Shown in pieces: positions 9,367 to 59,472 of a stretch of 64,000 nt of DNA. How positions within the stretch are numbered: position 1 is the first letter of the stretch; each line of letters starts with the position of its first letter. The DNA is from Dehalococcoidia bacterium (GTDB lineage: Bacteria; Chloroflexota; Dehalococcoidia; GIF9; AB-539-J10): contig WJOY01000027.1 of assembly GCA_009619075.1 (NCBI GenBank), forward strand, positions 662-64,661, read 5' to 3'. A model generated the notes under the pieces. It was not told the DNA's origin. It did no database searches and worked only from the letters and a program-made list of their open reading frames with translations. The translations under genes were made by a program, and so were the position numbers.

Positions 9367-9460
9367 GTTATCTGTTTACTCATGGTAAGCCTTGCCCACC
9401 GATGAAACTTGTCTTAAACTGAGGGGGAGGCTTTATATGGGGCAGTTATAAACATGAAAG

Positions 9461-9469
9461 TGTTATAAT
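9461..9469 (+). promoter_or_regulatory. possible extended -10 element (TGTTATAAT) upstream of rsfS
   Basis: TG-n-TATAAT lies at 9461-9469. No good -35 was seen. Confidence 0.3.
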
Positions 9470-9523
9470 ATAAGTAAAGGAGGATAATTCTTTCTGGAGG
9501 CTGAAGAGCTAGCGAAGTTAGCT

Positions 9524-27954: not shown

Positions 27955-29211
27955 ATGCCCACAATCAAAAATATGTTAGCAAGAAAAGTTTTCGATAGTA
28001 GAGGAGTAGAGACTTTAGAAATTGATATTATTACAGAAAATGGTTTTGGAAGAGTAGCTGCTCCATTTGGTGCACCGGGGAGCAGGGGGAAATTTGAAGT
28101 GCCTGCTTATTCACCAGAAGGACTTAACAAATCAATAGAAATTATTGAGACCGAAATTAAACCAAAAATATTGGGATTATCTTCAACTGACCAAGAGAGA
28201 ATTGATTCAATTTTGAGGGAAATTGATGGTACGAATAATTTTAAACGAATCGGGGGAAATACCTCCTCATCCATATCCTTGGCAGTTGCCAAAGCTGCAG
28301 CTTCAGCATTAAGGATACCTTTATATAAATACCTTGCTTTAAATAATAATTTTACCTATCCATATCCTTTGGGCAACATGATTGGTGGTGGGGCACATGG
28401 TATGGGATCAGCCCCTGACATGCAAGAACATCTTGTGGCTCCTATTGGTGCTCGGAATATTGAAGAGGCAGTAACAGCTAATATTAAGGTTCATGAAAAG
28501 ATAGGTAAAGTTTTGGAAGTGAAGGATTTGAGTTTTGCCGGTGGCATGGATGACGAAAGGGCGTGGGTAGCTAATTTAACAGATGTTGAAGCCTTGGATA
28601 TTATTTATGATGTTTGCCATGAAGCAACAGAAAAAACGGGTATTAGATTTGGAATTGGGCTTGATCTGGCTGCAGACCGACTCTGGAATCCTGAAACAAA
28701 GGAATATGAATATCAGCGTGAAGGCAAAAGTAGGACTACTGAAGAACAAATAAATTTTTTATCTTCATTGATAGAAAGGTATAGTTTATTTTATGTTGAG
28801 GACGCTTTTCACAGTGATGATTATCTTTCGTTTGCAGTCTTAAATAAAAAATATGGAAAACGCTGTTTTATCTGTGCAGATGATCTTTTTGCCAGTAATC
28901 CAGAAAGGACTAAAAGGGGCATAAAGCTTAACTCTGCAAATGCGATGATTTTAAAACCTAATCAGGTTGGAACACTTACCGCTACATTGGAAACTTTTAA
29001 AATCGCTCAAGAAAATAAAGTGAAAGTTGTAGTTTCTCATCGTTCAGGCGAAACATATGATGCATCTATTGCCCATATTGCCGTAGGGTGGCAGTTAAGC
29101 ATGATTAAAACTGGAGTGTTGGGAGGTGAGAGATTAGCAAAATTAAATGAGTTATTGAGAATTAGTGAGGATTATGGCATGGCTGATTTAAGACCTTCCC
29201 CTTATTTTTAA
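27955..29211 (+). CDS. eno: divergent enolase-family protein (phosphopyruvate hydratase-like)
   Basis: 418 aa. Enolase landmarks are retained: N-terminal RKVFDSRGVETLE, metal ligand contexts LDLAAD, YVEDAF and CADDLF, plus ILKPNQVGT, SHRSGET and IKTG. The rest of the sequence is far from the usual bacterial consensus. Confidence 0.7.
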   Translation: MPTIKNMLARKVFDSRGVETLEIDIITENGFGRVAAPFGAPGSRGKFEVPAYSPEGLNKSIEIIETEIKPKILGLSSTDQERIDSILREIDGTNNFKRIGGNTSSSISLAVAKAAASALRIPLYKYLALNNNFTYPYPLGNMIGGGAHGMGSAPDMQEHLVAPIGARNIEEAVTANIKVHEKIGKVLEVKDLSFAGGMDDERAWVANLTDVEALDIIYDVCHEATEKTGIRFGIGLDLAADRLWNPETKEYEYQREGKSRTTEEQINFLSSLIERYSLFYVEDAFHSDDYLSFAVLNKKYGKRCFICADDLFASNPERTKRGIKLNSANAMILKPNQVGTLTATLETFKIAQENKVKVVVSHRSGETYDASIAHIAVGWQLSMIKTGVLGGERLAKLNELLRISEDYGMADLRPSPYF

Positions 29212-30887
29212 AAGTTGGAAATTCCCTTGGTTTGCATGACAGGTTTCGTTTTCACTGTGATTTGTTTGTTTTCTAATTGAAAGACGATGTTTTTCGACCA
29301 CCCCTCGTCTAATTCAGGATAATCTTCCCTACGGTGTGCTCCGCGTGTTTCTGTTCTCATCCTCGCAGCTAATGTAACAAATCGCCCAATCATTAGGAGA
29401 TTCACAACCTCTAAAAGCTTAGCAAGTGTTTTAAACGACCGTTCGCCCACAAGGCATAGGTTACCTATTTTGTTTTCCCTAGTCTTATCAAACGTTTGAA
29501 TAGCCTTTCGAAGTCCATCTTCGTTTCTAATAACTCCCACATACTTCCCCACGATCCCTGTGATTTCTTCCTTTACCTCGAGAGGATCAAAACCTTTGTC
29601 TCGCTTGAAAATTTCCACGATGAGATTTCTGACTAAGTTAATTTGACTTGGAGGTATAGGTGTGCTCGAGACTGAAAGTGCCCTTTTTGCTGCCCACTTA
29701 CCTGCTATTGTTCCAAAGACCTGGGTTTCTGTTAAGGCATTTCCTGCCAGACGATTGGCACCATGGATTCCAGACGCCACTTCACCGGCAGCGTAGAGCC
29801 CATGTATTCCTGTCTCACACTTCTCATTGATGACAATCCCTCCCATAAAGTGATGGGCTCCAGGGGCCCACTCATATGGCTGCCACGTAGGATCAAAATT
29901 TTCTCCAGCGCAGGCCTTCATAAATTCCCTAAACTTATATAATTCCTCTTTTGGAACACCTGATAAATCACCAAACATTCCTCCATGTGGGGTACGCCGC
30001 CCGGCCTCTATTTCTTTCTGGGCACATATCGCCATTGCGTCGCGGGTAACAAGCTCCAATTTCTCAGGATAATATTTCCTCATGTAACGTTCACACAATC
30101 CGTTATAAAATCTTCCCCCAAAGGTCACCAGCCCGTCTGCTGGAGGGGGTGTCCCTCGCATCGCTTTAGGATAAATCATACATACCCTGCTCTGTATAAA
30201 TTCCATGTCCGATAACTGGGCGCACACCTTATATGCCAGAGCATATCCATCTCCGGCGATATCAGATGGATTGGTTGTAAACGGATATAAATTCCCAGCT
30301 CCCCCGGTAGCAAGAATTACCGCTTTAGCATTTATTATTAAAATGGTATCTGTTTCGAGTTCTAAACCTACAGCACCCACAACTGCATTTTTCTCTTTGA
30401 TCAAATCAGTTATCATCACGTGACTAAGGAAATCAATACCGAGCCTCTTCACCTCCTCAATCAGCCCCTTGATATATCCTCCATGGTAAGGCTCAAGCGC
30501 TAAAACACCCCGCGGGACCGAATTGCCAGTAAACGGAAAAGGCTTGTAACACTCACCCTCCTTTTCGAATTCAGTCCTGTACCGCTCAAGATCCTTAACT
30601 CTTTCGGGTGCATGATTTACAAGTATTCTCACTAATTTTTGGTTATTCAGATAACAACCTGCACGGATCGTGTCCCTAAAGTGGCGGTCCACACTATCTT
30701 GCTTAGCAAAAGCCGCTGACATCGCCCCCATCGCAACAGTCGTACAACCAGAGGGAAAGTCTCCCTTCGAGACAATCAGAACTTTGGCACCCACATTCTG
30801 GGCTTCGATGGCAGCTCTCAACCCTGCACCACCAGCGCCCATGACTAAAACATCTGTTTCTAAGAGCCTTTCCTTTATTTCTGGCAT
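29208..30887 (-). CDS. FAD-dependent oxidoreductase, fumarate reductase/succinate dehydrogenase flavoprotein-like
   Basis: 559 aa with a DVLVMGAGGAGLRAA dinucleotide fold and C-terminal ETRGAHRREDYPELDEGW. The His for covalent FAD is replaced (GCTTVAMGAM). No Fe-S subunit is adjacent. Confidence 0.8.
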   Translation of the reverse strand: MPEIKERLLETDVLVMGAGGAGLRAAIEAQNVGAKVLIVSKGDFPSGCTTVAMGAMSAAFAKQDSVDRHFRDTIRAGCYLNNQKLVRILVNHAPERVKDLERYRTEFEKEGECYKPFPFTGNSVPRGVLALEPYHGGYIKGLIEEVKRLGIDFLSHVMITDLIKEKNAVVGAVGLELETDTILIINAKAVILATGGAGNLYPFTTNPSDIAGDGYALAYKVCAQLSDMEFIQSRVCMIYPKAMRGTPPPADGLVTFGGRFYNGLCERYMRKYYPEKLELVTRDAMAICAQKEIEAGRRTPHGGMFGDLSGVPKEELYKFREFMKACAGENFDPTWQPYEWAPGAHHFMGGIVINEKCETGIHGLYAAGEVASGIHGANRLAGNALTETQVFGTIAGKWAAKRALSVSSTPIPPSQINLVRNLIVEIFKRDKGFDPLEVKEEITGIVGKYVGVIRNEDGLRKAIQTFDKTRENKIGNLCLVGERSFKTLAKLLEVVNLLMIGRFVTLAARMRTETRGAHRREDYPELDEGWSKNIVFQLENKQITVKTKPVMQTKGISNF

Positions 30888-37527: not shown

Positions 37528-38639
37528 AGGTTTTGGTTACTGGTGGCGCCGGCTTTATCGGCTCTCACACTGTCGATTTGCTTCTTGAAAAAGGCTATGA
37601 GGTTCGTGTTCTAGATAGCCTTGAGCCGCCAGTGCATCCTGATAAAGAGAAGCCTGATTACCTGCCCGACGATGTGGAATTTATCCTTGGTGATGTTCGA
37701 AACAAGGGTGACGTCGAGAAGGCGCTTCAAGGGATAGACTACATCTTTCACCTTGCTGCTTATCAGGGCTACCTTATTGACTTTAGCAAATTTGCCTTTA
37801 CCAATGATGGCGGCACCGCTCTGATATATGAAGCTATCGTGGAGAAAAAGCTTCCGGTAAAGAAAATAATACTGGGAAGCTCTCAATCGGTTTACGGAGA
37901 AGGGAAATACCGCTGTGCCCGACATGGCATCCGATATCCTTTTCCCCGCTCTTTAGAGCAATTGGAAAGAGGAGATTGGGAGCTAAAATGCCCCACCTGT
38001 CAACAACCGATGCAGCCTCTCCCCACCGATGAATCCAGGGCTAGCCCCCATAATCAATATGCTGTTTCCAAATATTGCCAAGAGCTTTATGCCTTAACCC
38101 TGGGAAAAAGATTTGGCATTCCCACTGTGGTGCTTCGCTACAGCATCACCCAGGGCCCACGCCAGAGCTTCTACAATGCTTACTCCGGTATCCTGCGCAT
38201 CTTTGCCACCAGGTTGCTCCACAACCTTCCCCCTATTATTTATGAAGATGGTGAGCAACTTAGGGATTATGTTTATGTTGGAGATGTGGTGGTAGCGAAT
38301 ATTTTAGCCATGGAAAGCGAGACCGCAAATTACGAGGTTTACAATATTGGTGGAAGTGAAATCCTTTCTGTGTCAGAGTATGCTAAGCTTGTTTCGAATG
38401 TTATGGGTAAAAATGTCACGCCTCGAGTACCTGGCGAGTTCCGCTTTGGCGATGTAAGGCATATTATCTCTGACATCTCTAAGATAAAGAAGCTGGGCTG
38501 GCAGCCACAAACCTCCGTTGAGCAAGTTGCCCGGGAATATATTGATTGGGCAAGGAAACAACCTGAGGTCTCAGATTACTATGCTGAGGCTGAGAAAGTG
38601 ATGAAGCAAGAAGGTGTGCTCAAAGCCGTTAGGAGTTAG
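37524..38639 (+). CDS. NAD-dependent epimerase/dehydratase (extended SDR) with Cys/His insert
   Basis: 371 aa with VTGGAGFIGSH and YAVSKYCQE (YxxxK). It carries the insert CARHG...KCPTCQQ. Confidence 0.8.
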   Translation: MKVLVTGGAGFIGSHTVDLLLEKGYEVRVLDSLEPPVHPDKEKPDYLPDDVEFILGDVRNKGDVEKALQGIDYIFHLAAYQGYLIDFSKFAFTNDGGTALIYEAIVEKKLPVKKIILGSSQSVYGEGKYRCARHGIRYPFPRSLEQLERGDWELKCPTCQQPMQPLPTDESRASPHNQYAVSKYCQELYALTLGKRFGIPTVVLRYSITQGPRQSFYNAYSGILRIFATRLLHNLPPIIYEDGEQLRDYVYVGDVVVANILAMESETANYEVYNIGGSEILSVSEYAKLVSNVMGKNVTPRVPGEFRFGDVRHIISDISKIKKLGWQPQTSVEQVAREYIDWARKQPEVSDYYAEAEKVMKQEGVLKAVRS

Positions 38640-38730
38640 GGATTGGAGACTAGGGACTAGGGATTAGGAGCTAGGGATTAGGAGCTAGGGATTAGGGACT
38701 AGGGATTAGGAGCTAGGGACTAGGACACAG
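38629..38730. repeat. simple-sequence linker S1 (CTAGGGA / TTAGGAG words)
   Basis: GTTAGGAGTTAGGGATTGGAGACTAGGGACTAGGGATTAGGAGCTAGGGATTAGGAGCTAGGGATTAGGGACTAGGGATTAGGAGCTAGGGACTAGGACACAGGACAT. TAG occurs in all three frames. Confidence 0.85.
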
Positions 38731-38742
38731 GACATAAAAGCG

Positions 38743-39318
38743 ATGAATCAAGAATATGTCGAGATTATAAAAAAATATCTTTCCGCAGTTAGTGCTACTT
38801 TGGCCAAGCTCCCCGTGGAGGGAATCGCCCAGCTTGTTGAACTACTTGAGCAAGCGCGGGTGAACAGGAAGAGAATCTATACCTTCGGCAACGGTGGCTC
38901 AGCCGCTACCGCCTCGCATTTTGCCTCCGACCTGGCAAAGGGGGCAATCTCTAAAGGAAAGCCCAGAATAAAAGCCTTTGCCTTGACTGATAATGTCCCC
39001 CTTCTCTCTGCTTGGGCAAATGATACTGCCTATGAAAACGTCTTTGCTGAGCAACTGGAGAATTTCATTGAGATGGGAGACATTGCTATAGGCATATCAG
39101 GCAGCGGCAATTCTCAAAATGTGCTTAATGGTGTGAAAGTGGCAAAGGCTAAAGGCGCTACCACCATTGGGTTTATCGGCTTTGATGGGGGGGAACTCAA
39201 GGACCTGGTTGACTTAGCCATTATCGTTCCCAACCACAATATGGAACAAGTCGAGGACATCCACCTTCTCATGGAACATGTTATCACCACTTGCTTAAGA
39301 AATTCGAGTCAGACATAG
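38743..39318 (+). CDS. gmhA: phosphoheptose isomerase (SIS domain)
   Basis: 191 aa with blocks GNGGSAATASHFASDL and ISGSGNS. Confidence 0.85.
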   Translation: MNQEYVEIIKKYLSAVSATLAKLPVEGIAQLVELLEQARVNRKRIYTFGNGGSAATASHFASDLAKGAISKGKPRIKAFALTDNVPLLSAWANDTAYENVFAEQLENFIEMGDIAIGISGSGNSQNVLNGVKVAKAKGATTIGFIGFDGGELKDLVDLAIIVPNHNMEQVEDIHLLMEHVITTCLRNSSQT

Positions 39319-39343
39319 GACTTATGACGTAGGACATAAAATA

Positions 39344-40477
39344 ATGAACATTTTGGTCACCGGCGGCGCAGGATATGTAGGAAGCGTGGTAGCTGAGGAA
39401 CTGCTTCAGCAGGGCTATCAGGTCATTATTTTAGATAACCTTCAGCAGGGGCACAAGGAAGCAATTCTCCCCGGAGCTGAGTTTGTCATCGCCGATATTT
39501 GCGGAGCTCAGCATCTTGAGGATGTTTTTCACCGATTTAAAATTGGTGCTGTAATGCACATGGCGGCCGAGACTGTGGTGGAATATTCTATGACTGACCC
39601 CAAAAGGTATTTCCAGAATAACGTCGTCGGCGGACTAAACCTTCTTGATGCTATGCTGAAGCACGGGGTCTACAAATTTGTCTTTTCCTCGAGTGCCGCG
39701 GTTTACGGAGACCCTAAGAGCATTCCTATCGAGGAAGACCACCCCAAGCTTCCTGTAAATAGCTATGGTGAATCCAAGCTCATGTTTGAGCATATCTTAG
39801 AATGGTATGGCAGGGCGTATGGGCTCAAGTATGTTTCTTTGAGATACTTCAATGCTGCCGGAGCAACCGAGCTTCTGGGGGAAGACCACCGCCCTGAAAC
39901 TCACCTGATCCCCAATGTCCTCAAAGCTGCTCTCCTCCAACCCCCAATCTCCAATCCCCAGCCCCAGGGGCTAGGGACTAGGGGTTCGGGATTTGTCTCC
40001 ATATTCGGCACAGATTATCCCACAAAAGATGGAAGCTGCATTCGGGATTATGTTCATGTAATAGACATCGCTCAGGCACACATCCTGGCACTGCAAAAAC
40101 TCAATCAGGTCGAGGAGTCCTCAGTCCTCAGTCCTAAGTCAGGGAGGGGATGCGGGACATCGGATGTAGGACCTAGGACGTCGGACATAGGACATAGGAC
40201 TACGGGGTTGGGCTGGAAGGCTGGGGTTTACAACCTGGGTAATGGAGAAGGGTACTCTGTGCTTGAGGTAGTAGAAGCAGCGAGAAAGGTCACCCACGCA
40301 GAAATCCCTGTCAAAATCTCTCCCAAGCGAGCAGGAGACCCGGCAGTTCTGGTGGCAAGCTCACACAGGGCTAAAGAGGAGCTTGGATGGAGGCCTAAAT
40401 TCCCTCAGCTTGAGGCTATAATTGAAAGCGCCTGGAAATGGATGAGGAAGCACCCAGAGGGGTATTCTGGGGTCTAG
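39344..40477 (+). CDS. galE: UDP-glucose 4-epimerase-like SDR with two in-frame simple-sequence insertions
   Basis: 377 aa with VTGGAGYVGS, YGESKLMFE and CIRDYVHVIDIAQAH. The extra segments are encoded at 39936-39993 and 40109-40212. Confidence 0.85.
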   Translation: MNILVTGGAGYVGSVVAEELLQQGYQVIILDNLQQGHKEAILPGAEFVIADICGAQHLEDVFHRFKIGAVMHMAAETVVEYSMTDPKRYFQNNVVGGLNLLDAMLKHGVYKFVFSSSAAVYGDPKSIPIEEDHPKLPVNSYGESKLMFEHILEWYGRAYGLKYVSLRYFNAAGATELLGEDHRPETHLIPNVLKAALLQPPISNPQPQGLGTRGSGFVSIFGTDYPTKDGSCIRDYVHVIDIAQAHILALQKLNQVEESSVLSPKSGRGCGTSDVGPRTSDIGHRTTGLGWKAGVYNLGNGEGYSVLEVVEAARKVTHAEIPVKISPKRAGDPAVLVASSHRAKEELGWRPKFPQLEAIIESAWKWMRKHPEGYSGV

Positions 40478-40500
40478 GGTCTAGGGACTAGGGTTAGGAT
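40469..40500. repeat. G-rich arm upstream of four-helix-bundle gene 1
   Basis: GGGGTCTAGGGTCTAGGGACTAGGGTTAGGA. It overlaps the galE stop. Confidence 0.75.
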
Positions 40501-40503
40501 GTC

Positions 40504-40872
40504 ATGTTAGAATGGCAAAATCTGGAGGTTTGGAAGGAGGCACATAGGCTGACGCTGGAAGTGTACCACTTGGCTCAAGAGCTCCCTGATAAAGAGCGCT
40601 TTAGATTGAGTGACCAGATGTGTCGTTGTGCTTCCTCGGTGGCGGCGAACATTGTAGAGGGGCATGCCAGGCACAGTAGGCGAGAGTACATCCAGTTCCT
40701 TTACGTAGCTAGGGGCTCGGCTGAGGAATTACGCTACCACCTGTTACTTGCCAAAGACCTGGGCTACCTCAAAGATGGGAGGTATAGCGAGTTGGATAAG
40801 GCATACATCCAAGTATCTAAGATGCTTAATGCCCTTATCTCGTCACTCAGGAGTAAGGATGCCAACTCTTAA
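40504..40872 (+). CDS. four-helix-bundle protein (23S rRNA intervening-sequence protein / Avd-like family)
   Basis: 122 aa. LEVWKEAHRLTLEVYHL, SSVAANIVEGHARHSRREYIQFLYVARGSAEELRYHLLLAKDLGY is the family pattern (TIGR02436/PF05635), recognised from memory. Confidence 0.8.
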   Translation: MLEWQNLEVWKEAHRLTLEVYHLAQELPDKERFRLSDQMCRCASSVAANIVEGHARHSRREYIQFLYVARGSAEELRYHLLLAKDLGYLKDGRYSELDKAYIQVSKMLNALISSLRSKDANS

Positions 40873-40928
40873 CCCCCAGTCCCCAATCCCCAATCTCCAA
40901 TCCCCAATCTCCAGTCCCCAGTCCCCAA
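40872..40928. repeat. C-rich arm downstream of four-helix-bundle gene 1
   Basis: ACCCCCAGTCCCCAATCCCCAATCTCCAATCCCCAATCTCCAGTCCCCAGTCCCCAA. It is complementary in words to 40469-40500 and to S1. Confidence 0.75.
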
Positions 40929-41662
40929 TGAAAGCCATGATATTAGCTGCCGGCGAGGGCATGAGACTCCGCCCCCTCACACTGGAGACCCCAAAGATTC
41001 TTTTGCCTATTGAGGGGACTCCCCTAATTCAATACACTTTAGCTTGGCTTAAGAGCCATGGCATCTCTGAGGTGGCCATAAATCTTCATCACCTGGGAGA
41101 GAAGATAAAAGATTTTCTCGGCGATGGTTCTAAGTTTGGAGTCAGAATTTGTTACTCACCTGAGGAAAAGCTTCTAGGCACTGCTGGAGGTGTAAAGAAA
41201 ATGGAGAAGTTCTTTGACGGCACCTTTGCTGTTGTCTATGGCGATGTTCTCACTGATTTCAATCTTTCAGCTATGGCTAATTACCATAAAGAAAAGAAAG
41301 CTCTAGGCACGCTTGCCCTGTTTCAAGCTCCCAACCCCTGGCAGGCAGGCATCGTGGAGATAGATAAACAGGGAAGGCTCTTAAGATTCAGGGAGAAGCC
41401 GCCTCGTGGCTCGGAGTCAGGGAATCTATCAAGTGGCGGTGTATATATTCTGGAAAAGGACATCCTTAGCTACATTCTGGGTGAAGGCTTTTGCGACTTT
41501 GGCTATGACGTCTTTCCCAAGCTCGTAGAACTCGCTCTCCCTCTTTATGGCTACATCTTGGAGCCGCAGGATTACCTTATTGACATCGGCACCCCTGAAA
41601 AATATCATAAAGCACAAGAAATTTGGCAGCGAGTCCTAAGTCCAAAGTCAGTAAGTCAATAA
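40928..41662 (+). CDS. hddC: sugar-phosphate nucleotidyltransferase, D-glycero-D-manno-heptose 1-phosphate guanylyltransferase-like
   Basis: The start is taken at MKAMILAAGEGMRLRPLT (G-x-G-x-R motif). The longer ORF from 40748 reads through the C-rich arm and overlaps the previous gene. Confidence 0.8.
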   Translation: MKAMILAAGEGMRLRPLTLETPKILLPIEGTPLIQYTLAWLKSHGISEVAINLHHLGEKIKDFLGDGSKFGVRICYSPEEKLLGTAGGVKKMEKFFDGTFAVVYGDVLTDFNLSAMANYHKEKKALGTLALFQAPNPWQAGIVEIDKQGRLLRFREKPPRGSESGNLSSGGVYILEKDILSYILGEGFCDFGYDVFPKLVELALPLYGYILEPQDYLIDIGTPEKYHKAQEIWQRVLSPKSVSQ

Positions 41663-41667
41663 GTCAA
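41632..41667. repeat. left arm of four-helix-bundle cassette 2 (GTCCTAAGTC words)
   Basis: AGTCCTAAGTCCAAAGTCAGTAAGTCAATAAGTCAA. It forms the last codons of hddC. Confidence 0.7.
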
Positions 41668-41686
41668 GGGAAGCTGCGACATAAAC

Positions 41687-42079
41687 ATGAAGATAGAGAG
41701 GTTTGAAGATATCGATGCCTGGAAAGAGTCCAGAAAGCTCGTGAACATGGTTTACGATATTTCAAGCAATGGGGAATTCTCAAAAAATTTCTATCTGCGG
41801 GACCAGATTCGCAGTGCTTCTGTCTCTGTAATGTCCAACATTGCTGAGGGCTTCGATCGAAGCTCTGACAAAGAATTTACCCAGTTTCTTGTGATGGCGA
41901 GAGCTTCAGCTTCTGAAGTCAAAAGCCAGCTATATGTAGCTCTAGATAGAGGTTATATAGAGAATGAGGAGTTCAAGACAATCTACGAACAGGCAACCAA
42001 TGTGATAAATTTAATCAACGGCTTCATTCGTTATCTTAAAAAACCTCGAACGACACACGACACAGGACATAGGACATAG
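41687..42079 (+). CDS. four-helix-bundle protein (23S rRNA IVS / Avd-like family)
   Basis: 130 aa with IDAWKESRKLVNMVYDI, SVSVMSNIAEGFDRSSDKEFTQFLVMARASASEVKSQLYVALDRGY. Confidence 0.8.
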   Translation: MKIERFEDIDAWKESRKLVNMVYDISSNGEFSKNFYLRDQIRSASVSVMSNIAEGFDRSSDKEFTQFLVMARASASEVKSQLYVALDRGYIENEEFKTIYEQATNVINLINGFIRYLKKPRTTHDTGHRT

Positions 42080-42083
42080 GACG
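42047..42083. repeat. right arm of cassette 2 (GGACATAGGAC words)
   Basis: CGAACGACACACGACACAGGACATAGGACATAGGACG. UAGGAC is complementary to GUCCUA in the left arm. Confidence 0.7.
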
Positions 42084-42650
42084 ATGACCAAAGCAGTCTT
42101 CCTTGACCGTGACGGCACCACTGCCAGGGATGTCCACTACTGTCGCAAGCCGGAGGACTTCGAGCTCCTCCCCACTGTCCCTGAAGCTATAAGGCTCCTA
42201 AATGAAAATGGCTTCAAAGTTGTGGTAATCACTAACCAGTCAGGAATTGCCCGAGGTTATTTTACTGAGGAGACCCTGGCTCAGATTCATCAAAAGATGA
42301 CGGGTGAGCTGGCAAAATATGGCGCCTGGGTGGATGCCATCTACTATTGCCCTCATCATCCTGACGATGGCTGTGAGTGCCGCAAGCCGAAGACAGCTCT
42401 TTTCCACAAGGCAGCAGAGGAACTCAATATTGATTTCAAGCTTTCCTATGTGGTCGGTGACATGCAGATGGATATAGATGCTGGCAAAGCCCTGGGCTGC
42501 AAAACAGTTCTGGTAACCACCGGTCCCCAGCCCCTAGTCTCTAGTCCTAAGTCTCCAGTCTCTAGTCCCCAGCCCCCAATCGCCTCTCCCGACTACACTG
42601 CCCGAAATCTTCTTGAATCAGCACGATGGATAGTAGATAATAGGGGATAG
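42084..42650 (+). CDS. gmhB: D,D-heptose 1,7-bisphosphate phosphatase (HAD-IIIA) with C-terminal simple-sequence insertion
   Basis: 188 aa with FLDRDGT, the Zn site CxH...CxC (YCPHHPDDGCECRKP) and VGDMQMDIDAG. The insertion is encoded at 42523-42580. Confidence 0.85.
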   Translation: MTKAVFLDRDGTTARDVHYCRKPEDFELLPTVPEAIRLLNENGFKVVVITNQSGIARGYFTEETLAQIHQKMTGELAKYGAWVDAIYYCPHHPDDGCECRKPKTALFHKAAEELNIDFKLSYVVGDMQMDIDAGKALGCKTVLVTTGPQPLVSSPKSPVSSPQPPIASPDYTARNLLESARWIVDNRG

Positions 42651-42678
42651 AGCTAACGTAGGACGTAGGACTTTGAAC

Positions 42679-43365
42679 ATGAAAACAATCAGCATTGTAA
42701 TCCCTGCCCGAAATGAGAAGGATGGAATTGAAAAAACAATACGAGCTATCCCCAAGGGCGAGCTTGAAAAGATGGGCTATGAAGTCCAAATCCTGGTGGT
42801 GGACAATGACTCGAACGACGGAACCGGAGAGCTGGCAAAGAAAGCTGGTGCAGATGTTGTTTTTGAGCCGAGGCTAGGTTATGGAAGTGCTTATAAAGCC
42901 GGCTTTGCTCACGCCAAAGGGGATATTATCGCCACTGCCGATGCTGACATGACCTACCCGGTAGAAGATATTCCCAAGTTCATTAAACTTAGCGAGGAAC
43001 AGAATTTAGACTTCATCACTACTGATCGATATGCTTACATGGAAAAAGGTGCTATGTCATCCCAGCATAGACTGGGCAATGCCATCTTGAATCTTGCTGC
43101 AAGACTTCTTTTCCAAATAGGTTTAAAGGATTCTCAATCTGGCATGTGGGTTTTTAGGAAAGATCTCCTAAATAAAGCAGTGTTGAAGGCTAATTCTATG
43201 GCTCTATCCGAGGAGCTTAAAATTGAAGCTATCTATTTCCTCCGATGCAATTGGAGGGAATTTCCCATTCAATACCGGGTCCGAGTGGGTAAAGCTAAAT
43301 TAAAAACCTGGAAAGACGGCTTTGGAAATCTGTTTTATTTGATAAAGAAGAGAATAGTTCGCTAA
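42679..43365 (+). CDS. GT2 glycosyltransferase (polyprenol-phosphate sugar synthase-like)
   Basis: ISIVIPARNEKDGIEKTI, VVDNDSNDGT, and DADMTYP (DxD). The ORF track starts at a TTG at 42673; the ATG at 42679 is preferred. Confidence 0.85.
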   Translation: MKTISIVIPARNEKDGIEKTIRAIPKGELEKMGYEVQILVVDNDSNDGTGELAKKAGADVVFEPRLGYGSAYKAGFAHAKGDIIATADADMTYPVEDIPKFIKLSEEQNLDFITTDRYAYMEKGAMSSQHRLGNAILNLAARLLFQIGLKDSQSGMWVFRKDLLNKAVLKANSMALSEELKIEAIYFLRCNWREFPIQYRVRVGKAKLKTWKDGFGNLFYLIKKRIVR

Positions 43366-43377
43366 AATTTGGAGATA

Positions 43378-43618
43378 TTGAGTAGGCCAAAAACTTCCTA
43401 GAATATCGTGGAAACAGTGTGAAAAGGCTTTCAAAAGGGCTGGCTGGTATGAAGTTAAGCGGACTGGTGACCACCATCATTACGCCCATCCTACAAAGCT
43501 AGGATTGGTTACCATTCTGGAGCGTTCTACTCTGGCGATGCCTTTACTCAAGAGCATTCTGAGGCAAGCTGACTTGAGTAACGAAGAATTTATCAAGCTA
43601 CTTCACAAGAGGAGGTGA
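43378..43618 (+). pseudogene. hicA: hicA-family toxin gene interrupted by a +1 frameshift in an A5 run
   Basis: From 43382 the frame reads VGQKLPRISWKQCEKAFKRAGWYEVKRTGDHHHYAHPTKLGLVTILERSTLAMPLLKSILRQADLSNEEFIKLLHKRR with no start codon. A TTG at 43378 in the neighbouring frame gives MSRPK and joins it if one A of AAAAA (43389-43393) is removed. Confidence 0.6.
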
Positions 43619-43622
43619 AAAA

Positions 43623-43841
43623 ATGCCGAGAGAATATGAATACACGGTCATTTTAGAGTATGATGAAGAAATTGACGAGTACGCTGCCTTAGTACCTGCC
43701 TTACCCGGATGCACCAGCCAGGGTAAGACCTCGGAGGAGGCCTTAGCCAATGTGCGGGAAGCTATCCGAGGTCATATAGAAGCACTGCGCCAGCTAGGAC
43801 GTGAGGTACCCGTTGAAGACCGTGTAAAAGTGGCCGTATGA
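43623..43841 (+). CDS. hicB: HicB-family antitoxin (UPF0150-like)
   Basis: 72 aa with YAALVPALPGCTSQGKTSEEALANVREAI. Confidence 0.8.
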   Translation: MPREYEYTVILEYDEEIDEYAALVPALPGCTSQGKTSEEALANVREAIRGHIEALRQLGREVPVEDRVKVAV

Positions 43842-43883
43842 AACAAACTTGAAGAAATTCGATGAACTTTAGAACCTGGAACC

Positions 43884-44576
43884 ATGAACCAAACTCAAAA
43901 AACTCAAACAACTCTCATTGTTCCCGCCTATAACGAAGAGGATGGGCTTCCCATTGTGATGGAGAAGATATTCAAAGTCATTAATGGAAGCTATGAGGTG
44001 ATAGTTGTGGATGATGGCTCAACCGACAGAACCTCAGAGGTTGCCTCCCAATTCTCCTGCCGGGCTATAAGACACGAAGTAAATCGAGGCAAAGGTGAAG
44101 CTCTTAAAACTGGCATCAAAAATGCCGTAAGCGACAATATCATCTGGACAGATGCCGACGATACCTATCCCGTGGAACTTATCCCTCAGATGGTAGAAGC
44201 CTTAGATAGCTATGATGTGGTAGTCTGCTCCAGAAAATATGGCCGGGGGAATATCCCCCGCTTTAACCGCCTTGGCAATTGGCTCTTTCGCACCCTAATA
44301 AGGAATATTTATGGCTTCAAGCCTTATGACCCCTGCACCGGGCTCTATGGAGCCAAAAAGTGCCATCTTGAGAGGATGAACCTCTCGTCCAAACGCTTTG
44401 CCATTGAGCCTGAAATCTCCATCAAAGGAAGCCGCATGAAACTTAGAATGCTGGAAATTCCCATAGAATATAAAGCCAGGGTCGGGAGTGCCAAACTCAA
44501 CGCTATAAAAGTAGGCTTTGAAGACCTCTGGACCATTTTAAAATTTATCTTCTGGAGAGAGAATAGATACTCATAG
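43884..44576 (+). CDS. GT2 glycosyltransferase (polyprenol-phosphate sugar synthase-like)
   Basis: 230 aa with LIVPAYNEEDGL, VVDDGSTDRT and DADDTYP. Confidence 0.85.
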   Translation: MNQTQKTQTTLIVPAYNEEDGLPIVMEKIFKVINGSYEVIVVDDGSTDRTSEVASQFSCRAIRHEVNRGKGEALKTGIKNAVSDNIIWTDADDTYPVELIPQMVEALDSYDVVVCSRKYGRGNIPRFNRLGNWLFRTLIRNIYGFKPYDPCTGLYGAKKCHLERMNLSSKRFAIEPEISIKGSRMKLRMLEIPIEYKARVGSAKLNAIKVGFEDLWTILKFIFWRENRYS

Positions 44577-44665
44577 ATACTTGTAGAGATTAAGAGATTG
44601 GAGATTGGGTGATTAAATGGAGATTAACAGAAACTTATAGAGATTAGGAGATTGATAGAAATCGG
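44558..44665. repeat. left arm of four-helix-bundle cassette 3 (GAGATT words)
   Basis: ...TAGAGATTAAGAGATTGGAGATTGGGTGATTAAATGGAGATTAACAGAAACTTATAGAGATTAGGAGATTGATAGAAATC. Confidence 0.75.
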
Positions 44666-44673
44666 GAAATGCC

Positions 44674-45123
44674 ATGACTTACGATAAATCTCAGCCAACT
44701 ACAACAAGTCTCAAGGGGATAAACTCGTTTGAAGACCTTGAAGTCTGGCAAATGGGCAAGGATATTGTTATGAAGATTTACCACTTAACCAAAGACTTTC
44801 CTAAACAAGAATCATTTGGGCTAACTTCACAGATGAGAGAGTCAGCTCTTTCTGTTCCTGCCAACATTGCTGAAGGTTTCGGCCGTTATCATTATATGGA
44901 CAAGGCTAAGTTTTACCTTAATGCCAGAGGCTCGCTCTATGAGCTTAAAAGCCATCTCCTCATTGCCCAGGAGCTTGGATACTTTAATGAATCTCTACCA
45001 GTCTCAACTAATATCAGTAAATCTCAGTCAATTACCAGTCTCTTTAACATGATTGACAACCTAAGCCTAAAGCTTAACAATCTCATCACCGCAACTAGAA
45101 AATTAAGCAAGGGGGCTCAGTGA
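44674..45123 (+). CDS. four-helix-bundle protein (23S rRNA IVS / Avd-like family)
   Basis: 149 aa with LEVWQMGKDIVMKIYHLT, SALSVPANIAEGFGRYHYMDKAKFYLNARGSLYELKSHLLIAQELGY. Confidence 0.8.
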   Translation: MTYDKSQPTTTSLKGINSFEDLEVWQMGKDIVMKIYHLTKDFPKQESFGLTSQMRESALSVPANIAEGFGRYHYMDKAKFYLNARGSLYELKSHLLIAQELGYFNESLPVSTNISKSQSITSLFNMIDNLSLKLNNLITATRKLSKGAQ

Positions 45124-45176
45124 GCCAATGAATCTCAATGAATCTCCACCAATCTCAATTAATCTCGAATCTCTAA
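45124..45176. repeat. right arm of cassette 3 (AATCTC words)
   Basis: GCCAATGAATCTCAATGAATCTCCACCAATCTCAATTAATCTCGAATCTCTAAAGG. It is the reverse complement in words of 44558-44665 and encodes the N-terminus of the next GT2. Confidence 0.75.
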
Positions 45177-46201
45177 AGGTTTCGGTCATCATCTGCTGCT
45201 ACACTATGGAGCGCCTTAACGACATAAAAGAGGCAGTGGAATCAGTCCTTAACCAGACATTAAAGCCACACGAGGTAATATTAGCCATAGACCACAACAA
45301 AGAACTTTTTAGGAAACTTGTAGAGACTTATAGAGATTCAATAGAGATTCGTAGAAAGTTTCCCAATCTCAATGGGTCTCAACCAATTTCAATTAAAATC
45401 GTCCTCAACACTGGCGCTCCCGGTATTTCAGTAACAAGGAATTTAGGAATTCGCACAGCTACCGGACACTTCATTGCCTTTATGGATGATGATGCCATAG
45501 CTGATAAAAACTGGTTGGAGATTCTTATAAGAAACCTTTCGCAAAATCCTTCAGCGGCGGTAATAGGGGGTAAGTGCATCCTTATTTGGCCTAAAGAGAA
45601 GCGCCCTCTCTGGTTTGCTGAGGAGCTTGATTGGATTGTAGGGGGGACTTATAAGGGGATGCCTGTATCTTCAAATGGGCAAATACGAAACGTCTCAGGC
45701 TGTAATATGCTTGCCACAAAGGAGCTTTTTGAAAAAGCAGGCCTTTTCAGCACCAGGATAGGAGCAGTAGCTGGGTTTCTTAGAGGAGCGGAAGAGGCAG
45801 AGATGTGCTTGAGACTCAAAAAGGCTTTTCCTGAGAAGCCCATTTTGTATGAGCCGGAAGCCATCGTACATCACAAAGTTCACCTTCATCGCTTAACTTT
45901 AGGGTATATCATCAGGCGTTCCTTCGATGAAGGTTTCAGCAAAGCCAAAGTCCAAAAACTCCACCGACGAACTCTGTCAACCCAACAAACTCTAGACTCT
46001 CGACTCAGGACTTTCGACTCAGGACTTTCGACTGAACATTCCTACCTCCGCTACCTCTTCTTCACCTCCATCCCCGAAAGGCTGAGGCACTTTTACCAAA
46101 AAAGTAGCTTTCTTCAAGCAGCCACCATTATAATAAGCATAGCTGCCACAGGCGCTGGTTATCTCATAGGAAAGATAAAAACCCAGAACTTAGAACCTTG
46201 A
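45128..46201 (+). CDS. GT2 glycosyltransferase with C-terminal TM helix and internal simple-sequence insertions
   Basis: 357 aa with VSVIICCYT, ISVTRNLGIRTATG and FMDDDA. Insertions are encoded at 45319-45400 and 45988-46037. Confidence 0.8.
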   Translation: MNLNESPPISINLESLKVSVIICCYTMERLNDIKEAVESVLNQTLKPHEVILAIDHNKELFRKLVETYRDSIEIRRKFPNLNGSQPISIKIVLNTGAPGISVTRNLGIRTATGHFIAFMDDDAIADKNWLEILIRNLSQNPSAAVIGGKCILIWPKEKRPLWFAEELDWIVGGTYKGMPVSSNGQIRNVSGCNMLATKELFEKAGLFSTRIGAVAGFLRGAEEAEMCLRLKKAFPEKPILYEPEAIVHHKVHLHRLTLGYIIRRSFDEGFSKAKVQKLHRRTLSTQQTLDSRLRTFDSGLSTEHSYLRYLFFTSIPERLRHFYQKSSFLQAATIIISIAATGAGYLIGKIKTQNLEP

Positions 46202-46220
46202 ACGTAGAACATAGAAAGAG

Positions 46221-46279
46221 GAACAATTATAATAAGCATAATAGGCACCGGGACAGGTTATCTAGTAGGAAAGGCAAAC
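46221..46279. repeat. degenerate duplicate of the GT2 gene 3' tail (copy 2)
   Basis: ACAATTATAATAAGCATAATAGGCACCGGGACAGGTTATCTAGTAGGAAAGGCAAAC aligns with ACCATTATAATAAGCATAGCTGCCACAGGCGCTGGTTATCTCATAGGAAAGATAAAAAC at 46124-46181. Confidence 0.7.
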
Positions 46280-47023
46280 ATGATTGGATTTTTGAAGGCG
46301 GGTAACGCTAGAGAATCAGGCCTGGAAATTGTTTTAAACCAACTGGAAGCATTGTCTATATCAAGTGGGTTGCACACTAAGAAAGAAAAGCGATTACTGT
46401 GGGATTTAGCTAAGTGCAAAGGGGCGGGTGCCATCGTAGAAATAGGAAGCTTTGAAGGTTATTCTACCATTATCTTGGCTAAAAGCTTAAATGGCTTTGG
46501 TTGTGTATATGCCATTGACCCACATACAGGCAAACTATGTGATAGCGATGAAATTAAGTCGTCCCTTAGGTGCGATACCTGGACTCGGTTCAATCAAAAC
46601 ATTCAAGATACTGAGGTTTTTTCGATGGTTCGTCCTATAAAATTAAAAAGTGAAGAGGCTGTAGTAGGTTGGGATAATCCGTTAAAACTCCTTTGGATTG
46701 ATGGCTCTCATAGATATGAGGATGTGAAGAAGGATTTCTTGCTTTGGTATCCTTATCTGTTACTTGGTGGAGTAGTTGTTTTCCACGATTGTTGGATTGC
46801 GGGTGTGCGTAGAGTCATAGTTAATCATCTCCTTCGGAACCGTCTCTTTGGCGAGTTTGAATTTACTCCGTGTTGTATGTTCCGTGCGACTTATCTAGGC
46901 AAGGAGCATGGATTATATCTACAGAGAAGCTTCTGGCGCTTAGTTTTTTGGTTAAGAGGCGCTATTGAGGAGAAGTACGCATTAAGGAAGTGGCTGTTAC
47001 ACTTGCTAAGGTGGTTAAGCTGA
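46280..47023 (+). CDS. class I SAM-dependent methyltransferase (Methyltransf_24-like)
   Basis: 247 aa with IVEIGSFEGYSTIILA, and LLWIDGSHRYEDV. Confidence 0.7.
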   Translation: MIGFLKAGNARESGLEIVLNQLEALSISSGLHTKKEKRLLWDLAKCKGAGAIVEIGSFEGYSTIILAKSLNGFGCVYAIDPHTGKLCDSDEIKSSLRCDTWTRFNQNIQDTEVFSMVRPIKLKSEEAVVGWDNPLKLLWIDGSHRYEDVKKDFLLWYPYLLLGGVVVFHDCWIAGVRRVIVNHLLRNRLFGEFEFTPCCMFRATYLGKEHGLYLQRSFWRLVFWLRGAIEEKYALRKWLLHLLRWLS

Positions 47024-47116: not shown

Positions 47117-48835
47117 TTGGATATGGAATTCAGGCAACTAACATCGCACTGGTCGGCAAAGCAAATTTCAATCTTGTTGACCATAATTGCCTTGATACTC
47201 TGGGCTCATAGCATCACTCAAGCCAAGCTCAACATTGGTTTCTATGGCCTTATCCATAGTTTTCCTCTTACCTTCTTTGTAGCTCTGGGTATTCTTACCA
47301 TCGCCTCAGCTATTCTCTGGGTCTCTAAAGAAAGTCACCAAAAGCTGCTGTTATTGCAACTATTGCTATTAATTACAGCTCTTTGGTTAGTCCCCTTGCT
47401 AATAGGCACGCGCCCTTTCTGCGGCGATGCATATAGAAATTTGTGGCTAATCACTGAGATTACAGAACGAGGAAAACTTTTTGATTACATGTATCTTTTT
47501 TGGCCAGGAGCTTTCCTCCTTTTCCCTACGATGGCCAAGCTGGCCTCTATAAGCTTTGGCTCAATAATGAATATTTCTTCATTTTTTATGCAACTGCTTT
47601 ATCTTTTGCCCCTATATGTCTTCTTGAGGAACATCCTTGGCGAAGCCCGAATTAATTATTGCTGGGCTGGGCTCTGGATTTTCTCTCTTGCTAATTGGAT
47701 TGAAGAAGGATATTTTAGCCCAAGTGGCACCGCTTACTTCTTACTGCTAGTACTACTCGCCTTGGTAACCGCTCCTTCCTTTTGGGAAAGAAGCGCTAAA
47801 TCTGTTGTGCTTCTATCATTGGCGATCGTCACTTTTGCTGCACTAGCAATCACCCATTTGCTTACCTCCCTTGCCGCCTTATGCATTCTTGCTGTCCTAT
47901 GTGCTGTAAAGAGAAATAAAAGAGTAGCACCTGTTGTAGCAGTTTGTTTTCTTCTTGTAATATCCTGGGACATTATTGGCACTGGAGGTTATATGACCAA
48001 GCAAATCACATCTCAGCCTCTTGTCACTACTGTTAGCACAACACCACCGGGCGAGACAACACCACCGGGCGAGACAACACCACCGGGCGAGACAACACCA
48101 CCAAGCGAGGTAACACCTGGGATACTTACCTTCGACCCTAGACCGCTAGTAGAGCAGCAAGTCACCGGACATATAGCAGGTAGTGAGTCCCACATCACCG
48201 TGGTTAGGCTAAGGATATTATTTTCAGCGCTAATTGCTGCATTAGCACTTGGTGGTGCTATCCTTCTTTTAGTTAGAAAAAAATTTCGTGCTGCTATTCC
48301 CATCATAGCTATTGCCTTAGCCCCTATACTGCTTTTTCCTATTAGTGGTTATTGTTATCAGCCCCATTTTACTCTGCGCCTTTATTTCTTCTTGCTACCA
48401 CCTATGGCATATTTTGCCACAAACCTTTTGGATACAAGGAGAAAAGCAGTTGCTGCCATCCTGTGCCTCATATTAATTACCGCTATCCCGCTGCATATTG
48501 TAAGCCACTATGGAAACCAAGCCTTCGACTACTGGTCTCCGAGTTATATAGCTGGCTTCCGCTATGTTGACGGAGTAAAAAAGGATAGCGACTATCCCTT
48601 CGCCAAACTCAGCCAGCTTAGCTGGGAAGATAACCAATTGGTTTTTGATGACAATTTTCCAAATCAAGAGCATTACTTTGCCATCAGCCAGCATGACGAC
48701 GCCTCCTATGATTTTTTATTTAACCAGCCCCAACTTGTCGACGAAGTCTGGAATTGGCTATACAACTCAGGGGATTATGATTGTATCTATGCCAACCCAG
48801 ATTTTGACCTTTATGTGAGAGAAATCGGAAGTTAG
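47117..48835 (+). CDS. large polytopic membrane protein (possible glycan polymerase or GT-C-like) with TTPPGE repeat linker
   Basis: 572 aa with more than 10 hydrophobic segments. A central TTPPGETTPPGETTPPGETTPPSE linker is present. No family motif was recognised. An ATG at 47123 is an alternative start. Confidence 0.6.
   Translation: MDMEFRQLTSHWSAKQISILLTIIALILWAHSITQAKLNIGFYGLIHSFPLTFFVALGILTIASAILWVSKESHQKLLLLQLLLLITALWLVPLLIGTRPFCGDAYRNLWLITEITERGKLFDYMYLFWPGAFLLFPTMAKLASISFGSIMNISSFFMQLLYLLPLYVFLRNILGEARINYCWAGLWIFSLANWIEEGYFSPSGTAYFLLLVLLALVTAPSFWERSAKSVVLLSLAIVTFAALAITHLLTSLAALCILAVLCAVKRNKRVAPVVAVCFLLVISWDIIGTGGYMTKQITSQPLVTTVSTTPPGETTPPGETTPPGETTPPSEVTPGILTFDPRPLVEQQVTGHIAGSESHITVVRLRILFSALIAALALGGAILLLVRKKFRAAIPIIAIALAPILLFPISGYCYQPHFTLRLYFFLLPPMAYFATNLLDTRRKAVAAILCLILITAIPLHIVSHYGNQAFDYWSPSYIAGFRYVDGVKKDSDYPFAKLSQLSWEDNQLVFDDNFPNQEHYFAISQHDDASYDFLFNQPQLVDEVWNWLYNSGDYDCIYANPDFDLYVREIGS
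48038..48109 (+). repeat. 18 bp tandem repeat, 4 copies (ACAACACCACCGGGCGAG)
   Basis: Three perfect copies are followed by one copy with two changes. It is in frame and encodes TTPPGE x3 plus TTPPSE. Confidence 0.95.
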
Positions 48836-59274: not shown

Positions 59275-59472
59275 TAAAGCAATCTTTGGTAGAGGCGGGG
59301 ATGAACCCCGCCACTACGAAGGGAGATTGCCACGCGGAGCCTGTCCTGAGCTAGATTCTTCGATCGCTCCGCTCCCTCAGAATGACACAAAGTGGAGGGC
59401 TCAGAATGACAGGAAGCGAAGGGCTCGCAATGACAAGAAGCCATCTGGCGGGGATGAACCCCACCACTACTA
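59275..59472. repeat. composite repeat cluster abutting tRNA-Gly
   Basis: GGCGGGGATGAACCCCGCCACTAC (59294-59317), GAGCCTGTCCTGAG, CTCAGAATGACA twice, AGCGAAGGGCTCGCAATGACA and GGCGGGGATGAACCCCACCACTAC (59447-59470). These are reverse-orientation copies of the words at 33120-35166. Confidence 0.8.

Follow-up and report, generated by a model that had tools for sequence, protein, structure and literature searches.

Inverted heptamer arrays in frame in a galE-like gene of a Dehalococcoidia bacterium as probable gene-less members of an intervening-sequence-type element class

The galE-like UDP-glucose 4-epimerase gene in a 64,000-nucleotide (nt) stretch of a Dehalococcoidia bacterium (assembly GCA_009619075.1, contig WJOY01000027.1, positions 662 to 64,661; this whole stretch is called the window below) carries two in-frame blocks made of inverted 7-nt repeats. 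We consider these blocks to be, probably, translated members without an open reading frame (ORF) of a class of heptamer-hairpin elements of the type known from rRNA intervening sequences (IVSs), tolerated in two permissive surface loops of the enzyme. Five observations underlie this reading. Close relatives differ in whether they have the blocks and in the family of the blocks; two particular GalE loops have repeatedly been the place of filling; the repeat words match the arms of neighbouring cassettes with a four-helix-bundle (4HB) gene; 4HB genes of many phyla are embedded between inverted heptamer arrays; and the copies in coding sequence show minimal substitutions by which in-frame stop codons are removed.

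Two inverted heptamer blocks in an intact galE gene

Both blocks are imperfect inverted repeats of tandem 7-nt units with no ORF between the arms (Table 1). The arms of insertion 1 are 27 nt each, 74% complementary and separated by 1 nt; in the correct register, 29 positions comprise 21 Watson-Crick pairs, 2 G:T and 4 A:C. Its CCCCAAT/CCCCAGT word is the STRR1 word. In insertion 2 a spacer of 13 nt, AGGGAGGGGATGC, separates the two arrays, and the best pairing of the arms extends over 25 nt at 76%. A sequence-only reading of the window had described two gene-less hairpins at 39936-39993 and 40109-40212; the sequence there is as described and both translations that it quoted are correct. Comparison with empty alleles, by which we fixed the block boundaries, confirmed the location and moved the boundaries to 39935-40000 and about 40099-40227. 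Counting hairpins with 24-nt arms, at least 75% match and a loop of at most 40 nt, we found 11 in the window against 0-1 in shuffled sequence, and three of them (39965, 40140, 45336) are heptamer hairpins within coding sequence. An assembly artefact is ruled out, since the Logan contigs of the source runs, an independent assembly, match 38595-40356 without any difference.

The host gene appears to be intact. Its product scored 393 bits against TIGR01179 (GalE; cutoff 262) and also matched PF01370, a Pfam scan returned only epimerase/dehydratase-type families, and solved GalE structures matched it as well (2c20, E=2.4e-94). The GalE motifs GxxGxxG, SSS and YGESK are kept, and the NAD and catalytic motifs are invariant among aligned orthologs. 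Given the conserved motifs and the score above cutoff, we rejected a pseudogene, and the earlier remark that no loss of the NAD or YxxxK motifs is seen holds. Alignments to 2c20 and 8wxk opened gaps at query residues ~198-217 and ~259-289, that is, following the helix HLIPNVLKAAL and preceding the strand YNLGNG. Both blocks thus sit between a helix and the next strand, where solved GalEs have just a few residues. Structure alignments and ortholog comparison agree that the blocks are extra relative to GalE and keep the frame, as had been proposed. An AlphaFold2 model built from a 36-sequence alignment was poor (mean pLDDT 52.7) and served for the order of helices and strands only.

Filled and empty alleles of the two GalE loops

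To the 377 aa of the window protein, baseline members of a set of 120 GalE orthologs oppose 325-326 aa, and 88 of the 120 have short native loops. Internal insertions occurred solely after reference residues ~199-201 (site 1) and ~238-242 (site 2); repeat-encoded N- and C-terminal extensions were also seen. Site 1 was empty in 88 orthologs and held a block of the CCCC/GGGG type in 20, of the GTTCAAG/CTTGAAC type in 9 and of a third type in 2; one more (P0024), reading LQSPVP, looks like a partial remnant. Site 2 held at least three unrelated blocks and was filled only where site 1 was filled as well (14/14). For each of the two loops, unrelated heptamer families account for three or more separate fillings. 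In P0025, a 499-aa ortholog, a GmhA(SIS) domain is joined to GalE through a heptamer-encoded linker (...MENLERRT); a stop-free intergenic heptamer array has here fused the neighbouring GmhA and GalE genes.

The turnover can be followed among close relatives. P0004, with a CCCC-type block, is 97.3% identical in its backbone to P0010, with a GTTC-type block, and each of them is ~95% identical to empty alleles. The DNA boundaries of the two site-1 families are identical, the same ~21 nt of the native loop being replaced; the empty alleles L003/L007 read DKN(S/N)PVS at this place, and the flanks of the filled allele L005 agree with empty L007 right to the block edge. For site 2, the metagenome contig X7 joins 40098 to 40228 via a native loop of 24 nt and so is without insertion 2. 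The galE blocks substitute for 21-24 nt of native loop instead of being purely added, and alignments of filled with empty alleles revealed no target-site duplication or footprint. Among metagenome population contigs, one is without cassette 1 and others carry different families at both galE sites. Copy number in the heptamer arms also varied between populations, by +14 nt in cassette arms, and the right arm at site 2 has 6.6 copies in the window as against about 4 in L091.

Adaptation of the arrays to coding

A 7-nt unit rotates through the three codon phases within three units, so that a unit containing a stop codon needs a change once per three. This is what the blocks display. The junctions of insertion 2 read TCGGA at 40160 and 40181, where the T is in codon position 1, and TAGGA at the four others. 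Insertion 1 retains CTAGGG at phases 1 and 2 and has TTCGGG at phase 0 (TCG at 39986). In the two blocks together, TAG is changed to TCG at exactly 3 in-phase junctions and retained at 6 out-of-phase ones. The same rule was found in L090 and L091, and its TGA equivalent for the GTTCAAG family in L090, L091 and L006, so that stop avoidance extends over three word families. Read in either of its other two frames, each block runs into stops, and intergenic arrays have them in all frames. An intact ORF excludes in-frame stops by definition; the informative part is how little was edited, the coding copies being minimally edited versions of stop-containing intergenic words.

The neighbouring four-helix-bundle cassettes

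All three 4HB genes of the window belong to PF05635/TIGR02436 ('23S rRNA IVS protein'), and each lies between inverted heptamer arrays (cassettes 1 to 3, Table 1). The period-7 arrays of the window are all found within 38.6-46.2 kb around these genes, and none in the other 56 kb. Each cassette has a counterpart of its own word family nearby within a coding gene: insertion 1 for cassette 1, insertion 2 for cassette 2 and, for cassette 3, a third gene-less hairpin in a GT2 glycosyltransferase gene; that the galE blocks and the arms of neighbouring cassettes are built from shared heptamer words had been noted before and is correct. Arm order is alike in insertion 2 and cassette 2 and in the GT2 hairpin and cassette 3. 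It is opposite in insertion 1 (C-arm, G-arm) and cassette 1 (G-arm, gene, C-arm). The GT2 hairpin is a putative insertion, the GT2 gene of L003 with which its host gene was compared being too distant for a decision. A match of words between an in-gene hairpin and the adjacent cassette was seen in three window cases and in L006 and L090, where a GTTCAAG-type block at galE site 1 adjoins a 4HB cassette with GTTCAAG-type arms. L007 has heptamer arrays without cassettes.

The cassettes themselves come and go in two intergenic slots of syntenic loci. Slot 1 contained a type-1 4HB gene, a type-2 4HB gene, a HicBA pair or nothing, with constant boundaries (GG(G/C)TAT on one side, ATGAAAGCCATG on the other). 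HicA/HicB-like toxin-antitoxin pairs lie between glycosyltransferase genes in the window (43390-43841), in L001 (7052-7485) and in L002 (10366-10825); that of L001 fills the slot used by 4HB cassettes in the window, L002, L006 and L090 and has no heptamer arms beside it. With either a 4HB gene or a HicBA pair in it, the slot behaves as a hotspot for small cassettes of various kinds. A PADLOC search found nothing.

At the edges of cassette 1 the arms overlap with signals of the adjacent genes. The galE stop TAG (40475-40477) is the first TAG of the left arm, within the first unit of that arm, and the downstream nucleotidyltransferase gene takes its ATG (40928-40930) from the final right-arm unit, CCCCAAT+G. 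The element thereby provides its neighbours with a stop and a start.

4HB loci in other phyla

Scanning one genome per species for relatives of the window 4HB proteins gave 80 loci from Nitrospirota, Patescibacteria, Proteobacteria, Planctomycetota, Bacteroidota, Bacillota, Cyanobacteria and others. Flanking inverted repeats exceeded the 95th percentile of shifted controls in 61/75, an estimate that may be biased by the choice of loci for similarity to heptamer-armed cassettes. Period-7 arrays occurred at 3.0/kb within 150 nt of the 4HB gene against 0.04-0.23/kb farther out, a 13- to 80-fold enrichment (about 20-fold relative to the pooled outer bins), and periods 5, 6, 8 and 9 were not enriched there. 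Where arrays stood on both sides, they were reverse complements in 25/29, perfectly so in 15 of these. Every locus has its own heptamer word, e.g. TGAGTTA, TAGGGGC, TGGTGAA or TTCAGTT, and gene-less hairpins adjoin these cassettes too. On the sense strand of the 4HB gene, upstream arm words of the 80 loci contain 33% G and 15% C. The purine-rich arm thus seems to favour one orientation with respect to the gene, cassette 2 of the window being an exception.

Heptamer hairpins also occur on their own. A metagenome scan with a degenerate GTCC/GGAC hairpin pattern returned 51 loci with unrelated loops, mostly non-coding, and 2/51 had a 4HB gene in the fetched DNA. A ~340-aa HEHAH-motif protein of a soil/sediment metagenome lineage (L102, L125, L128, L130, L134) has an in-frame GTCCTAA/TTAGGAC hairpin, VLSPQSKVLSLQSSDLGLRT; in L102 this hairpin lies at 8400-8459, and a 4HB gene region with GTGAAAC/GTTTCAC arms follows ~570 nt downstream (9000-9620). 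The exact 21-nt centre of insertion 1 had 0 matches in metagenome_contigs, which is uninformative, as that collection evidently is without even the known relatives.

Proposed origin and what weighs against it

The hairpins would have entered galE as DNA, perhaps when nearby arms seeded template switching or recombination, or else through a trans-acting activity in which the 4HB protein might be involved. Only copies that were in frame, free of stops and in permissive surface loops would have survived. The blocks would now be transcribed and translated into a Pro/Ser/Gln-rich and then a Gly/Arg/Thr-rich loop, which may be selfish or neutral passengers, not functional parts of the enzyme, and homologous recombination between galE alleles could afterwards spread or remove them. 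In RNA the arms could pair as an imperfect stem, a potential substrate of RNase III as in rRNA intervening sequences.

Several observations weigh against an origin from mobile elements. The cassettes contain no transposase or recombinase, and no target-site duplication, intermediate or mechanism of movement was seen. The locus-specific words make a conserved recognition site for a trans-acting factor unlikely, and in L102 the word of the in-frame hairpin is not that of the adjacent cassette. The choice of the 80 loci, mentioned above, bears on the cross-phylum association. The CCCC-type block at site 1 is 66 nt long in six loci of 65-100% protein identity, with no length variation, and it is also found with no 4HB gene nearby (L088, L089, L005, L001); there it behaves as an old loop inherited vertically or by recombination and not as an active element. 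Finally, galE alleles are mosaic. When L003, L005 and L007 were compared, identity between our gene and empty L003 switched between ~75% and 98-100% from one 60-nt segment to the next, which points to frequent homologous recombination in the gene cluster, able to spread or remove blocks. The same insert on several backbones is therefore no proof of repeated insertion.

Local birth and loss of the 4HB gene as alternatives

The blocks could have arisen in place without any mobility, by 7-nt slippage of native sequence and fold-back template switching, their likeness to cassette arms then reflecting a mutational process shared in this lineage or region. The +14-nt changes in array copy number between populations fit such a process, as do the presence of ATTGAAC, a unit of the GTTCAAG/TTGAAC family, already in the empty site 2, the arrays of L007 that occur without cassettes, and the individual word of each 4HB locus, which is expected if arrays are generated in place. 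Heptamers are moreover an over-represented class among the long simple-sequence repeats of bacteria (PMC4692102, PMC4679880). What makes this origin improbable to us is that the same ~60-nt block recurs with its boundaries and its non-repeat parts on diverged backbones; at site 2 the window, L090 and L091 have the right end GLGW(K/E)AG in common, with backbones that are 65% identical. Slippage also does not readily explain unrelated families at one site on 97%-identical backbones, nor the restriction of the window arrays to 8 kb with the three 4HB genes. A local origin, like the host-selected role discussed below, is possible and weighs less than an origin from IVS-type elements.

Long inverted repeats promote deletion of the DNA between them, and the galE blocks might accordingly be former 4HB cassettes that lost their gene. 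The sequence-only reading had proposed just this in calling them empty copies or excision scars. In its favour, words and arm order agree between insertion 2 and cassette 2 and between the GT2 hairpin and cassette 3, the LQSP of P0024 could be a further remnant at site 1, and rRNA insertions are known in both ORF-less and ORF-bearing form (10.1101/2024.02.27.582315). The proposal is not supported, and we regard it as unlikely, for insertion 1 above all. The order of a C-arm and a G-arm is the same on both strands, so deletion of the gene from the G-gene-C arrangement of cassette 1 cannot yield insertion 1 with its reversed order. A full cassette with its stop-terminated 4HB gene would truncate GalE, and neither a cassette nor a cassette fragment was found within galE in any of the 120 orthologs (0/120). 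The blocks left no footprint and replace native loop, and gene-less hairpins stand alone elsewhere, most of the free GTCC/GGAC hairpins being without a nearby 4HB gene.

RNA folding and a possible role in the host

Host selection might instead keep the hairpins, or a G-quadruplex in insertion 1, for the stability, RNase III processing or translation speed of the galE mRNA. Some features of site 1 are consistent with this: its block has a constant length and retains 18-22 of 29 Watson-Crick pairs over 35% protein divergence, with some restoring changes, and RNase III does act on IVS stems (PMC4990558). The G-arm of insertion 1 has a G-quadruplex-type motif with four G-tracts (GGGGCTAGGGACTAGGGGTTCGGG) and resembles GGGGAYT repeats that form G-quadruplexes in vitro (PMC4692102). 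The folding calculations point the other way. Sense-strand RNA of insertions 1 and 2 folded no better than dinucleotide shuffles (z -0.9 and -1.6) and the antisense RNA did (z -3.4 and -3.6): mismatched positions read A:C in the sense strand, so that pairing is worse in the mRNA. Arm-pairing energies of 82 cassettes showed no bias between sense and antisense (40 vs 41, p=0.63), although this is a weak test, duplexfold energies being large throughout; they give no evidence of selection specific to one RNA strand. A single RNA run, from a related sample, had no reads in the region. The block is also missing in 88 of the 120 orthologs, and coding constraint alone can explain its conservation where present. 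Insertion 2 contains no G-quadruplex motif, and it shares the lack of G-tracts with most heptamer words, for which reason we rejected the G-quadruplex as a general explanation. Taken together, a regulatory role is as unlikely as the loss of a gene.

Removal of the blocks after transcription or translation, in the manner of an intron, an IVS or an intein and leaving a mature enzyme without them, is very unlikely: rRNA intervening sequences of the same anatomy are cut out of RNA (PMC4990558), but the RNA is not religated upon their excision, an Rfam search of 38000-46500 gave no match, rRNA included, neither intein or intron motifs nor an intein family match of the protein were found, and strict keeping of the frame with stop-avoiding substitutions would be needless if the blocks were removed.

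Operon context and other features of the window

The blocks lie in a heptose/sugar-nucleotide operon that encodes a GHMP kinase, an epimerase, a GmhA-like SIS protein, GalE, a nucleotidyltransferase, a GmhB-like phosphatase and glycosyltransferases. The source is an uncultured bacterium of the subsurface, and homologues of the window STT3 and GalE with 61-67% identity bear the NCBI name 'Dehalococcoidia bacterium'. The coordinates of the blocks, cassettes and other arrays are collected in Table 1.

Table 1. Position and composition of the galE-like gene, its two blocks and the heptamer features of the window
Feature	Position	Strand	Description
galE-like UDP-glucose 4-epimerase ORF	39344..40477	+	377 aa; carries both insertions; PF01370, TIGR01179, 2c20
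Insertion 1 block	39935..40000	+	66 nt in place of 21-nt native loop; net +45 nt; reads LQPPISNPQPQGLGTRGSGFVS
Insertion 1 C-rich arm	39939..39965	+	CCCCAAT-type heptamers
Insertion 1 G-rich arm	39967..39993	+	GGGGCTA GGGACTA GGGGTTC GGGATT; four G-tracts
Insertion 2 block	about 40099..40227	+	replaces 24 nt; net +105 nt; reads ...NQVEESSVLSPKSGRGCGTSDVGPRTSDIGHRTTGLGWKAG
Insertion 2 left arm	40116..40140	+	GTCCTCA x3.6
Insertion 2 right arm	40154..40201	+	GGACATA x6.6; period 21 fits better
Cassette 1	40463..40929	+	G-arm 40463-40498; 4HB gene 40504-40872 (PF05635); C-arm 40871-40929
Cassette 2	41631..42083	+	GTCC-type arm 41631-41669; 4HB gene 41687-42079; GGAC-type arm 42044-42083
Cassette 3	44556..45172	+	GAGATTG arrays 44556-44660; 4HB gene 44674-45123; CAATCTC arrays 45126-45172
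Third gene-less hairpin	45316..45390	+	TAGAGATTC x3 / CAATCTC-type; in frame in GT2 gene 45128-46201
Single C-type heptamer array	42523..42585	+	in frame near C-terminus of GmhB-like phosphatase (PQPLVSSPKSPVSSPQPPIA)
Intergenic G-type array	38637..38725	+	TAGGGAT/TAGGGAC/TAGGAGC; stops in all frames; non-coding comparator

Heptamer arrays reach into other genes of the operon as well. The N-terminus of the GT2 glycosyltransferase (MNLNESPPISINLES) is encoded by the right arm of cassette 3, and the gene has further arrays at 45989-46033 (14-nt unit, GACTTTCGACTCAG) and at its C-terminal end, 46185-46216 (AGAACNT). Orthologs of the GmhB-like ORF (42084-42650) in L002, L003, L005 and L007 have arrays at the corresponding position, though of differing length. 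The nucleotidyltransferase gene of relatives contains in-frame C-type arrays (L002 8067-8191, up to ~125 nt; L003 6156-6184), and the window copy has none.

Two triplet-compatible tandem repeats, 18 nt x4.4 at 48038-48117 (ACAACACCACCGGGCGAG, 93% matches; in a 572-aa ORF, 47117-48835) and 24 nt x2.5 at 59376-59435, bear no relation to the heptamer system. Archaeal-type genes are found in the window at 56314-58659 (minus strand; archaeosortase-A-associated STT3/AglB oligosaccharyltransferase, TIGR04154, 667 bits) and at 29208-30887 and 52892-54226 (both minus strand; a TfrA-like thiol:fumarate reductase subunit and an F420-hydrogenase beta-like protein).

Significance

What rRNA intervening sequences and the very large TIGR02436/PF05635 family do, and where they come from, has been an open question since about 1990. 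The present locus shows a unit of gene plus heptamer stem outside rRNA, present or absent between close relatives, with gene-less copies domesticated in the loops of an enzyme. More tentatively, 4HB (S23p/Avd-like) genes with inverted heptamer arrays might form a single cross-phylum selfish class, of which the 23S rRNA IVSs would be the rRNA-resident subset. The arrays would then be made or maintained by a 4HB-linked activity, and gene-less hairpins would be locally spreading non-autonomous derivatives that also enter coding sequence and there create surface loops, starts and stops, and fusions. We hold this wider proposal to be doubtful, if attractive.

With filled and empty alleles of one operon and three cognate protein/repeat pairs in 6 kb, the system is tractable and suited to asking what the 4HB proteins bind, how the arrays originate and keep their complementarity, and whether RNase III acts on them in mRNA. 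It also illustrates a route by which non-triplet repeats enter coding sequence, through stop-avoiding changes at every third unit, repeat-encoded starts and stops and the GmhA-GalE fusion. For the annotation of metagenome-assembled genomes such insertions are a concern, as they lengthen predicted proteins.

Comparison with known systems

There is precedent for each ingredient: IVSs with S23p and heptamers, palindromic elements in frame, and heptamer repeats. What appears to be new is their combination, the placement in mRNA-coding sequence and the repeated occupation of two loops by distinct families; the link between 4HB genes and inverted 7-nt arrays across phyla likewise appears to be new. 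In the full-text literature, incompletely covered by our search, we found no paper on PF05635 genes being generally bracketed by inverted heptamer arrays or on heptamer hairpins in frame in enzymes, which is absence of evidence only.

The closest relatives are the 23S rRNA IVSs of Coxiella, Leptospira, Xanthomonas and Brucella, which share terminal inverted repeats, a long stem and an optional PF05635 gene with the elements described here. In the IVS of Coxiella burnetii the S23p ORF follows two or three tandem GACAGAT heptamers, their number depending on the strain, and a terminal inverted-repeat stem is cut by RNase III; older proposals of IVS mobility are cited in the same work (PMC4990558). 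A tandem-heptamer arm of variable copy number upstream of the ORF is thus common to both systems, as are a sporadic distribution, which suggests horizontal spread, and ORF-less forms, e.g. in Salmonella (PMC4990558). Unlike these IVSs, which occupy helix 25 or 45 of the 23S rRNA, the present elements are found between and inside protein genes of a sugar-nucleotide operon, and their gene-less copies are predicted to be translated. The three cassettes have an ORF; the galE blocks differ from S23p-bearing IVSs in having no PF05635/TIGR02436 ORF, and their spacers are 1 and 13 nt.

Rickettsia palindromic elements, in the account of Ogata et al. 2000 given by the review PMC10969869, are likewise short palindromes in frame in housekeeping and metabolic genes, compatible with the fold and adding a peptide. 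They form families of 100-150 bp with a conserved consensus; the arms described here are 7-nt arrays with a family-specific word, and no consensus element was found in the 64 kb covered. The association with a 4HB gene and the lack of a detected target duplication set our elements apart both from these and from intragenic repeats resembling miniature inverted-repeat transposable elements (ERIC, BOX, Correia).

Tandem 7-nt units as such are shared with the heptamer repeats of bacteria, namely cyanobacterial STRR (CCCCA[A/G]T), GGGGAYT/GGGAATC of Nostoc/Xanthomonas and TAACTGA of Beggiatoaceae, which have variable copy number and lie mostly between co-directional genes near stop or start codons, and of which the G-rich ones can form G-quadruplexes (PMC4692102, PMC4679880). 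The reports on those repeats deal with single direct arrays in non-coding DNA and mention no inverted pairs, link to 4HB genes or in-frame copies (PMC4692102, PMC4679880). In the proteins of Borgs, fast-evolving repeats within ORFs add disordered segments rich in Pro, Ser and Thr, to which the blocks in GalE are comparable as far as PMC9879509 describes them; unlike the direct repeats reported there, the 7-nt unit of the galE blocks rotates the reading frame, needs stop-avoiding changes and comes in inverted pairs.

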